5,702 nt of DNA, from the IMG/VR virus record IMGVR_UViG_2579778535_000003. The stretch is one strand, 5' to 3'. The position numbers were made by a program, and so were the translations under genes. The DNA is from a virus (Duplodnaviria; Heunggongvirae; Uroviricota; Caudoviricetes). A model generated the notes under the pieces. It did no database searches. It was not told where the DNA came from and was given only the letters and a program-made list of their open reading frames with translations. Of this stretch, positions 1 to 1,254 are shown piece after piece. The stretch's first letter is position 1. Each line of letters starts with the position of its first letter.

Positions 1-1
1 C

Positions 2-78
2 TGGACCGCCACCGGGGACTCGAACCTCGCACACTCAACTTAAAGGGTTGACGCTCTTTCCTGATGAGCTAGTGGCGA
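2..78 (-). tRNA. tRNA of uncertain identity; canonical fold places UUU in the anticodon positions, but with C at position 33
   Basis: Reverse complement folds as a cloverleaf: 7-bp acceptor stem (tcgccac/gtggcgg, U1-G72 wobble), U8 A9, D-arm with GG, 5-bp anticodon stem tcaac/gttga with 7-nt loop cctttaa, T-loop ttcgagt, discriminator T, encoded CCA. Starts 1 nt after the preceding tRNA. In Stx-type phages the tRNA after ileZ is annotated argN, but I cannot confirm that from this loop. Confidence 0.6.
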
Positions 79-79
79 T

Positions 80-155
80 TGGTGGCCCTTGCTGGATTTG
101 AACCAGCGACCTGGCGATTATGAGTCGCTCGCTCTCACCACTGAGCTAAAGGGCC
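80..155 (-). tRNA. ileZ: tRNA with CAU anticodon, Ile2 (lysidine) type, resembling enterobacterial ileX/ileY and phage ileZ
   Basis: Reverse complement ggccctttagctcagtggtgagagcgagcgactcataatcgccaggtcgctggttcaaatccagcaagggccacca: 76 nt, 7-bp acceptor stem, anticodon loop cuCAUaa, T-loop GGTTCAAATCC, encoded CCA. Closely resembles E. coli ileX as I remember it. Ile2 versus elongator Met cannot be settled from the anticodon alone. Confidence 0.8.
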
Positions 156-204
156 GGGAGCAGAATAATAATGGTGCGTAATTAATTCTGCAATCTCATC
201 CGTT

Positions 205-1254
205 TCAAACGATTAAATCCTGAACTTCCCTGACTGTCTGTTCAAAACGTCCGGTCTCCAGCTCAACACCAATCGCACAACGCCCCAGTGCCATCGCCGC
301 TTTTACCGTTGAACCTGAACCCATAAAAAAATCTGCAACCAGGTCTCCCGGACGACTGCTCGCGTTGATTATCTGCTGCAGCATTTCTGCCGGTTTTTCG
401 CACGGATGTTTCCCTGGATAGTACTGCACCGGTTTATGCGTCCAGACATCGGTGTACGGAACCTGCGCCGTCACACCGAAATACCGCCGCAAATTTTTAT
501 ATTCACTCAGCAGTTCCGTATACTGCCGGTTCAGCTCACTGTATGTGCTGACCAGCTGGTGGTGTGGCTTTTCCAGTTCCCCGCGCTGATGTTTTTCTGC
601 CGCAACACGCGCAAACAACGCCTGCAATTTGTTGTAATCACCCTCGTTCGGTAACTGCCACTGACTGGTACCAAACCAGTGCGAAGCCATGTTTTTCTTT
701 CCGGTGGCTTCCGCTATCTGTTTTGACGTTATTCCCAGTGATTTACGCGCATCACGAAAGTAAGAAATCAGCGGGGCCATGACGTGCTGTTTTAGCTCGC
801 GCCCCTGTGCCACATAGCCATCATCTTTCGGGCGATACGGTCCCTGATAATGTTCTGCAAACAGAATGCGCTCTGTTGCCGGAAAATACGCCCGCAGACT
901 TTCCTTATTGCACCCGTTCCAGCGTCCGGACGGCTTCGCCCAGATAATGTGGTTCAGCACATTAAAGCGTTCACGCATCATGATTTCGGTGTCAGATGCC
1001 AGGCGATGACCACAGAACAGGTAAAGACTTCCGGCAGGCTTCAGTACCCGCCAGAACTGCGCCAGACACTGGTCCAGCCATTTCAGGTAATCATCATCGC
1101 CCTTCCACTGGTTATCCCAGCCCTCGGGCTTCACTTTAAAGTATGGCGGGTCTGTGACTATCAGATCGACAGAATTTTCCGGTAAGGTCTGGATAAATTC
1201 TAGGCAATCAGTGTTGATTAACTCACAACTGGATATTTTTACAGTATTAGCCAT
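205..1254 (-). CDS. Orphan beta-class DNA amino-methyltransferase, probably N6-adenine
   Basis: 349-aa ORF with the catalytic motif IV DPPY near the N-terminus (VDLIVTDPPYF) and the AdoMet-binding motif I FxGSGST near the C-terminus (DFFMGSGSTVKAA). Motif order IV then I is the beta-class arrangement. No restriction endonuclease partner is present in the window. ATG start at 1252-1254 has no strong Shine-Dalgarno. Confidence 0.9.
   Translation of the reverse strand: MANTVKISSCELINTDCLEFIQTLPENSVDLIVTDPPYFKVKPEGWDNQWKGDDDYLKWLDQCLAQFWRVLKPAGSLYLFCGHRLASDTEIMMRERFNVLNHIIWAKPSGRWNGCNKESLRAYFPATERILFAEHYQGPYRPKDDGYVAQGRELKQHVMAPLISYFRDARKSLGITSKQIAEATGKKNMASHWFGTSQWQLPNEGDYNKLQALFARVAAEKHQRGELEKPHHQLVSTYSELNRQYTELLSEYKNLRRYFGVTAQVPYTDVWTHKPVQYYPGKHPCEKPAEMLQQIINASSRPGDLVADFFMGSGSTVKAAMALGRCAIGVELETGRFEQTVREVQDLIV

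Follow-up and report, generated by a model that had tools for sequence, protein, structure and literature searches.

The closest described relatives of the locus considered here are Shiga toxin (Stx)-converting phages and the lambdoid prophages that encode adenine methyltransferases of the M.EcoGII family. In the GenBank annotation of the Stx phage Stx2a_1447, on which we relied for the gene order, the Q antiterminator is followed by a pair of antisense genes, a small open reading frame (ORF), a methylase, the tRNA genes ileZ, argN and argO and, finally, stx2A/stx2B, an order that we take to be also that of 933W-type phages; full-text literature searches for ileZ/argN/argO gave nothing usable. 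M.EcoGII, a 349-amino-acid (aa) enzyme encoded by a prophage of Escherichia coli O104:H4 C227-11, methylates adenine in any sequence context and, in vitro, also acts on single-stranded DNA, RNA and hybrids (PMC5778455). Its methylation blocks many restriction enzymes, and an anti-restriction role has been proposed for the family; the enzyme is silent in the lysogen, its over-expression slows growth, constitutive expression is toxic, a constitutive high-copy construct was unstable, and plasmids heavily methylated by it are 4-5 orders of magnitude poorer at transforming E. coli (Murray et al. 2018, PMC5778455). The homologous M.EcoGI, a further non-specific adenine methyltransferase encoded by C227-11 prophages, differs from it by 16 residues, and phage 1720a-02 has been named as a carrier of a close homologue (PMC5778455). 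Here, we compare with these systems a window of 5,702 nucleotides (nt), that is, the whole stretch of DNA analysed, from the IMG/VR virus record IMGVR_UViG_2579778535_000003, which encodes a Q antiterminator, a methylase of the M.EcoGII family and two tRNAs. The initial annotation of this DNA had recognized Q, a DNA methyltransferase and the two tRNAs, and had noted that the window ends at the second tRNA; its left end lies one base beyond it.

Our analysis suggests, with a probability of roughly 0.85, that the window covers the point where, in an E. coli prophage of the non-Stx lambdoid kind, the early right operon meets the late one, with lysis genes beyond the tRNA array. Near-identical genomes were found by looking up the exact methylase protein and then by BLAST of the window, and two of them, L017 (GCA_027276205.1) and L015 (CP057031.1), match the window at 5701 of 5702 positions (99.98%) and 5700 of 5702 positions (99.96%), respectively. 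Beyond position 1, both continue with tRNA-Thr(UGU), tRNA-Gly(UCC), about 650 nt without a called gene, and then lysis and packaging genes, namely, Phage_holin_8, Phage_holin_3_7, a Peptidase_M15_4 endolysin, the Nu1/GpA terminase, portal and head genes. No gene of the RIP or SLT-beta families (stx) was found in this continuation, and neither argO nor stxA/stxB lies downstream of the tRNAs in these genomes. The third Arg tRNA and the stx or other cargo genes implied by the initial annotation are thus replaced by exactly the ordinary lysis genes that it had named as evidence to the contrary, as judged from the near-identical genomes. The same holds for the prophages of ECL27977, SLK172, E24377A and TW10690, which are 97-100% identical to the left end of the window and in which the array is extended by two tRNAs before the lysis genes begin, for strain 47-1826 (95% identical over 257-5702), which likewise has two more tRNAs and then lysis genes, and for the other examined loci with the UUU variant of the second tRNA, where lysis or packaging genes come next, never stx. 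Among the listed phage-record matches to the tRNA segment, those annotated as tRNA-Lys belong to non-Stx phages or to the PPompW part of double-prophage records, and those from Stx phages are ~87.6% identical and annotated as tRNA-Arg. Judging from these sequences, ordinary lysis genes almost certainly lie downstream in this prophage as well. Furthermore, a truncated prophage copy (L014) abuts two DUF892 genes, a gene for a KGG protein and trpABCDE; this flank can be read as the yciEFG-trp neighbourhood beside ompW, which would fit a PPompW-type prophage, and the prophage of the window seems to be located next to the yciEFG-trp region, as PPompW prophages are.

The resemblance to the region upstream of stx that the initial annotation had pointed out is nevertheless real: a megablast search against phage records matched 309 of them, for the most part from Stx-converting phages; Stx2a_1447 and WGPS2 rank first, with 92.4% nt identity over window positions 2-3782, and phage 1720a-02 is among the matches, with its methylase in the same position between Q and the tRNAs. 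The second tRNA, however, carries the anticodon UUU and not an Arg anticodon. Moreover, among complete E. coli genomes, 1940 out of 5426 carry homologues of the methylase (at least ~80% nt identity), with up to five copies each, so that the resemblance to Stx phages is not diagnostic. The succession of Q, methylase and tRNAs is an already well-described, standard and widespread module of lambdoid prophages of E. coli, and the useful result here is a negative one: this layout does not predict stx. The features of the window are as follows, in the order of late transcription.

5209-5607, minus strand: unnamed ORF (ORF list)
4161-5207, minus strand: DUF968 protein (YdfU-like, HNH-related; PF06147, E 1e-76), context
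3777-4148, minus strand: RusA Holliday-junction resolvase (PF05866, E 3.5e-16), end of the early right operon, context
3443-3796 (ORF), minus strand: Q antiterminator of the 933W/21-type family (PF06530, E 1.5e-45)
2882-3421, plus strand: second gene of the antisense cassette, 179-aa protein with four predicted membrane helices (hydropathy analysis)
1858-2889, plus strand: first gene of the antisense cassette, 343-aa protein with a RexA/RdgC-like fold (fold comparison)
1748-1857, no strand given: Q-type-specific leader (alignment)
1726-1747, minus strand: short GC hairpin and 7-U run (alignment, sequence)
1405-1602, minus strand: 65-aa winged-helix ORF (phrog_331, E 1.4e-37)
1391-1418 (hairpin 1401-1418), minus strand: terminator-like hairpin and UUUUUUAUUU (terminator scan, fold)
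205-1254, minus strand: orphan beta-class N6-adenine DNA methyltransferase of the M.EcoGII family, 349 aa (PF01555, E 1.8e-44)
80-155, minus strand: predicted tRNA-Ile2, anticodon CAU, equivalent to ileZ of Stx phages (ARAGORN; Rfam 72.5 bits)
2-78, minus strand: second tRNA, argN-like scaffold, anticodon UUU (ARAGORN; Rfam 39.6 bits)

All late-direction genes of the window are carried by the minus strand, including the Q, methylase, ileZ-like tRNA and second tRNA that the initial annotation had placed in this direction. Their order is as it had been described; Q and the methylase are, however, not adjacent, being separated by ~2.2 kb that accommodate the antisense cassette, the leader, the weak hairpin with its T-run, the 65-aa ORF and the terminator-like hairpin. 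In the annotation of the relatives, Q, named there as antiterminator Q, starts at the ATG at position 3787 and is 114 aa long.

The methylase ORF is intact, and its translation displays the motifs VTDPPYF at residues 32-38 (DPPY at 34-37) and FFMGSGS at residues 309-315 (FxGxG), in the order typical of the beta class, that is, an N-terminal DPPY, a central target-recognition region and a C-terminal FxGxG that binds AdoMet (S-adenosylmethionine). PF01555 covers residues 29-340, the top PADLOC model is that of the type II methyltransferases (MTase_II, E 1.4e-159), and 317 of 350 aligned positions are identical to M.EcoGII (~91%, E = 0, both proteins being 349 aa long), an approximate value because the reference was machine-read, with a few reading errors, from the PDF supplement of the SUPREM paper (PMC11551740). 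The ~30 differences fall mostly in the central, putative target-recognition region, and a PDB sequence search with the methylase retrieved distant beta-class enzymes only (best E 1e-24, over two partial stretches) and no structure of M.EcoGII. With a dN/dS of 0.09-0.16 relative to six relatives, the enzyme is very likely active, contrary to the inactivation that the initial annotation had listed as a possible objection, and, by extrapolation from its 91%-identical homologue, it is very likely non-specific. It is indeed an orphan, as had been claimed: no restriction endonuclease is encoded in the window or beside the methylase in any of at least 15 loci inspected, where its neighbours are the 65-aa ORF and the tRNAs, and the notion that it forms half of a restriction-modification pair was rejected because an endonuclease-like ORF lies nearby in none of these loci. 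The orthologous methylase of SLK172 (L004:9205-10253) is frameshifted and annotated as a pseudogene while the tRNA array remains intact there, which implies that the methylase is dispensable for prophage maintenance.

An enzyme that is sequence-specific, or that serves mainly a purpose other than anti-restriction, such as RNA methylation, epigenetic control of phage genes or packaging, or protection from a defence that is not classical restriction, appears unlikely. Such a role would accommodate the ~9% of residues at which the enzyme departs from M.EcoGII, most of them in the presumed DNA-contacting region, as well as the winged-helix ORF that is always co-located with the methylase, and the activity of M.EcoGII on single-stranded DNA and RNA, together with the poor transformation of methylated plasmids (PMC5778455), indicates that hypermethylation is not obviously beneficial. 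However, the methylase family has been maintained by purifying selection in prophages whose hosts and cargo vary widely, and the position in the late operon suits modification of DNA before packaging. If the enzyme behaves like M.EcoGII, as we favour, context-free N6-adenine methylation would shield progeny DNA from a wide range of adenine-sensitive restriction systems of types I, II and III when it enters the next host, and an enzyme kept silent in the lysogen would spare the chromosome from toxic hypermethylation. The protection of phage DNA that the initial annotation expected agrees with the literature proposal for this methylase family (PMC5778455).

How the methylase and the tRNAs are expressed is suggested by the region 5′ of the methylase, which we aligned from five prophages. 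Conservation in all of them starts at the GC hairpin with its T-run (~1726-1747); further upstream, only phages of the same Q family align, and the leader at 1748-1857 is common only to these (Stx2a_1447, 1720a-02). That the conserved module begins where the Q-type-specific sequence stops is what would be expected if the late promoter pR′ and the Q-utilisation site were located at ~1748-1815, where we provisionally place them; the leader probably also contains the divergent promoter of the cassette, and the hairpin at 1726-1747 is a candidate first late terminator (tR′-like). A second hairpin, at 1401-1418, consists of a 6-bp stem (GCCUUC/GAAGGC) with a U6 run, folds at -8.9 kcal/mol (z -2.5) and resembles an intrinsic terminator; it shares sequence with the stop codon of the 65-aa ORF, is separated from the methylase start downstream by 137 nt and, as the element 1391-1418, is kept in all relatives aligned. 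The 65-aa ORF itself is an annotated coding sequence in all relatives (hypothetical or TrmB-family winged-helix regulator) and always travels with the methylase; it ends within the terminator-like hairpin and may have a role in the control of the methylase. Being downstream of terminator-like sites, the methylase and the tRNAs would be made only under Q antitermination, i.e., during lytic growth, as their position, lambdoid precedent and the silence of M.EcoGII in lysogens suggest.

The first tRNA of the array, with the anticodon CAT in the DNA, has the same 76-nt sequence at each of the 11 loci compared, one of which is ileZ as annotated in Stx2a_1447. It matches ileX of K-12 at 68 of 76 positions, with a compensated 6-67 pair, and has an ileX-like body rather than that of a Met or fMet tRNA; identical copies are labelled tRNA-Ile by PGAP. 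By its sequence, this is tRNA-Ile2, a decoder of AUA after predicted lysidine modification. Given that folding of single tRNA sequences by minimum free energy gave no cloverleaves, we relied on ARAGORN, Infernal and covariation counts for this and the second tRNA. AUA accounts for 8% of the Ile codons in late genes, 31-32% in early and cassette genes and 1% in the host trp genes, so that codon use lends modest support to the classical rare-codon explanation, under which the tRNAs would supplement the decoding of codons that end in A (AUA, ACA, GGA) in phage genes.

The second tRNA is of a different nature. ARAGORN reads its anticodon as TTT, its Rfam score of 39.6 bits exceeds the gathering score of 29, and identical copies are called tRNA-Lys by PGAP; the Arg anticodon UCG of argN in Stx phages is absent. 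Its body is nevertheless that of argN, with 61 of 77 positions identical (16 differ) and the cloverleaf kept by covariation: across the variants found at the second position, 97.9% of cells are paired and 12 pairs are changed on both sides. A canonical tRNA-Lys(UUU) would have U33, fully paired stems and the body of the host lysT type. Here, by contrast, the anticodon loop is CCUUUAA, with C33 in place of the near-universal U33, the T stem contains an A51.C63 mismatch, the acceptor stem has, in this window, a U1.G72 pair, and the discriminator is U73. In E. coli tRNA-Lys, the discriminator base is A73. By comparison, argN reaches an Rfam score of 55.9 bits and the UCU variant one of 55.6, and the sister copies of the UUU tRNA in E24377A and PPompW, which have a D-stem deletion and acceptor-stem changes, fall below 29 bits. 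Among the 11 loci, position 1 of the array is occupied by one variant and position 2 by seven. On the argN scaffold, Stx phages have the anticodon UCG, TW10690 has UCU and this window has UUU. Variability at position 2 next to an invariant ileZ, together with the decay of the sister copies, points to relaxed constraint, and the simplest reading is that the UUU tRNA is probably a decaying copy of argN.

The array as a whole is common: the 204-nt tRNA segment matches 3057 genomes, with 398 records at least 99% identical, and at least 80% of the four-tRNA Ile-X-Thr-Gly array is present in 602 complete genomes. In its continuation beyond the window (L017:11256-11409), tRNA-Thr(UGU) is identical to the chromosomal thrU at 76 of 76 positions and tRNA-Gly(UCC) is one compensated pair away from glyT; from these sequences, the pair looks like a captured host thrU-tyrU-glyT cluster that has lost tyrU. 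A tRNA of TW10690 whose body is that of thrU differs from thrU by two substitutions and has the anticodon UUU where thrU has UGU. The anticodon switches map to positions 2-78 of the window, L007:3924-3999 and 4002-4078, and L001:6001-6077, and the sequences indicate that a Lys anticodon was acquired twice, independently, by tRNA bodies that are not of the Lys type, those of argN and thrU.

Could the UUU tRNA instead be a functional Lys(UUU) decoder on a non-Lys body, a back-up that escapes host nucleases cleaving tRNA-Lys(UUU), such as PARIS AriB or those of the PrrC type? The anticodon stem is fully paired through two double compensatory changes relative to argN, the exact sequence is as widespread as the 398 records indicate, the second UUU switch on the thrU body arose independently, the Lys(UUU) and Thr(UGU) tRNAs adjoin in the array, and the tRNA reads U36AAGUU and thus lacks the AriB cleavage site U36AAUC|A41. 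Nevertheless, we consider this explanation improbable in view of C33, the A51.C63 mismatch, the score of 39.6 bits compared with ~56 for the Arg variants, the further decay of the sister copies below 29 bits, the invariance of the neighbouring ileZ, which fits relaxed constraint at position 2, and U73 where tRNA-Lys of E. coli has A73; furthermore, the prophage Thr(UGU), being identical to host thrU, cannot be nuclease-resistant by sequence. A resistant Thr(UGU) variant, considered separately, was rejected on the same identity. The more inclusive proposal that the array constitutes a counter-defence kit, in which the UUU tRNA would sustain AAA/AAG decoding under attack by PARIS or PrrC-type systems, the thrU copy would buffer the loss of Thr(UGU) caused by PARIS and P2-OLD, and the switch in TW10690 would be convergent, is conceivable but strikes us as very improbable; that the UUU tRNA is structurally defective and that its sister copies have decayed weigh against such a role. 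As for the proposed targets, thrU has been reported as a target of P2-OLD and also of PARIS AriB, and P2-OLD, a classical anti-lambda system, destroys tRNA-Thr(UGU) (PMC12445682). Decay of an argN copy is our preferred reading of the second tRNA. Given the recent studies of defences that cleave tRNAs, the repeated switching to UUU on Arg and Thr scaffolds could be tested as counter-defence.

Several points weigh against the interpretation of the window as a late-operon junction with lysis genes ahead, an anti-restriction methylase and codon-supplementing tRNAs. The left flank of the window itself is not visible, and its continuation is that of near-identical genomes. The enrichment of rare codons in late genes is modest. 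The non-specificity of the methylase is extrapolated from a 91%-identical enzyme, with most of the ~30 differences in the central region, and the natural protection of such phages by methylation is, in the literature, a proposal only. The candidate tR′-like hairpin at 1726-1747 is weak here, with a 4-bp stem compared with 5 bp in relatives, -6.5 kcal/mol and a z of about 0; no promoter was located, given that the scan for sigma-70 consensus sites returned no more sites than shuffled sequences and none that was convincing for pR′; and the dependence of the methylase and the tRNAs on Q in this element is itself inferred.

The antisense cassette between Q and the putative late promoter (1858-3421) consists of two plus-strand genes with a GC content of 0.35-0.42. 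Neither protein has a match in Pfam, NCBIfam or PADLOC. The first, which belongs to a small family of 28 clusters, shows the two-domain fold of RexA/RdgC, and the fold comparison is its sole link to RexA: an hhalign comparison with lambda RexA was negative (probability 0.3), no Pfam RexA/RexB family matched, and a literature search linking RexAB-like genes to Stx phages yielded nothing relevant. The 179-aa partner has four hydrophobic segments, is 30-37% identical to its counterparts in prophages of Providencia and Franconibacter, and gave an E value of 0.01 over 74 aa in a single pairwise BLASTP comparison with RexB; a RexB-like role may be envisaged for it. The pair is kept in Franconibacter at the same place after Q, and in Providencia prophages it occupies the place that rexAB has in lambda, directly downstream of a cI-like repressor, with SieB nearby.

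At 3403-3433, precisely in the gap between the stop codons of two convergent genes, Q and the second one of the cassette, the window contains two copies of CCCAAGCTTGGAT, each with the 10-bp palindrome CCAAGCTTGG and spaced 18 nt start to start, which on either strand form a hairpin whose stem spans 10 to 12 bp (-20 to -22 kcal/mol, z about -5) and which could serve as a terminator in both directions or be a relic of recombination. The slot between Q and the leader (window 1750-3440; L006:5822-7326; L016:6924-9387) is variable in otherwise collinear prophages: in E24377A it holds a Ser/Thr kinase with PADLOC hits of the PD-T4-6/mad6/Stk2 kind and a PP2C phosphatase, in L016 and L018-L021 an antisense NA37-domain protein and a 477-aa protein without a PADLOC hit, and in ECL27977 and SLK172 it is empty. 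This slot looks like a cargo hotspot. Another variable, defence-like slot is found in the early region ~2.3 kb past the right end of the window, where L017 (1173-4805) encodes a 1210-aa YobI-ATPase protein (PADLOC Tmn, E 1e-66) and L015 has an AbiH-domain gene and an insertion sequence element.

As originally posed, the finding of a methylase followed by tRNAs matters little, for it concerns a standard module and a biochemically characterised enzyme family. More interesting than this layout are the cassette that combines a RexA-like fold with a membrane partner in a defence-like cargo slot and is also found in Stx2a phages, and, likewise, the switching of tRNA anticodons to UUU.

Compared with the described systems, the methylase of the window shares with M.EcoGII and M.EcoGI the length of 349 aa, the beta-class order of motifs, the orphan status and the location on a lambdoid prophage, and the window allele, whose activity and specificity are predicted by analogy, differs from M.EcoGII by its ~30, mostly central substitutions. 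Lambda RexAB lies beside cI, whereas the cassette of the window is antisense between Q and the late promoter; an exclusion role may be predicted from its fold, and the first protein has no detectable sequence similarity to lambda RexA. With the late leader of Stx2 phages (Stx2a_1447/WGPS2 and 1720a-02), the window shares the Q family, the small ORF, the terminator, the methylase and an identical ileZ, and with Stx2a_1447 also the antisense cassette. By contrast, Stx2 phages have UCG in the second tRNA, followed by argO and stx2AB, where the window has UUU and the near-identical genomes have Thr(UGU), Gly(UCC) and a different lysis cassette, and upstream of Q they carry KilA/LexA-like genes where the window encodes DUF968 and RusA. 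That the window nonetheless stems from an Stx-converting or other cargo phage, with stx or another virulence gene just beyond position 1, has hardly any probability left: the 92.4% identity to two bona fide Stx2a phages, with the same Q, cassette, methylase and ileZ, and the tendency of mosaic lambdoid phages to swap modules at exactly such junctions speak for it, but the genomes that match the whole window almost perfectly continue into the Thr and Gly tRNAs and a holin-holin-endolysin series, genes other than stx come after the second tRNA at all examined loci with the UUU variant, the listed Stx-phage matches to the tRNA segment are only ~87.6% identical and annotated as tRNA-Arg, and the right half of the window, with DUF968 and RusA, matches non-Stx prophages. 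Counterparts of this presumed non-Stx lambdoid prophage are those with the Ile-(Lys/Arg)-Thr-Gly array (ECL27977, SLK172, E24377A, TW10690 and PPompW), which have the same methylase module and the array followed by lysis genes, and which differ from the window in their Q types and in the cargo of the slot between Q and the late promoter, that is, a kinase with PP2C, the NA37 pair, or none.

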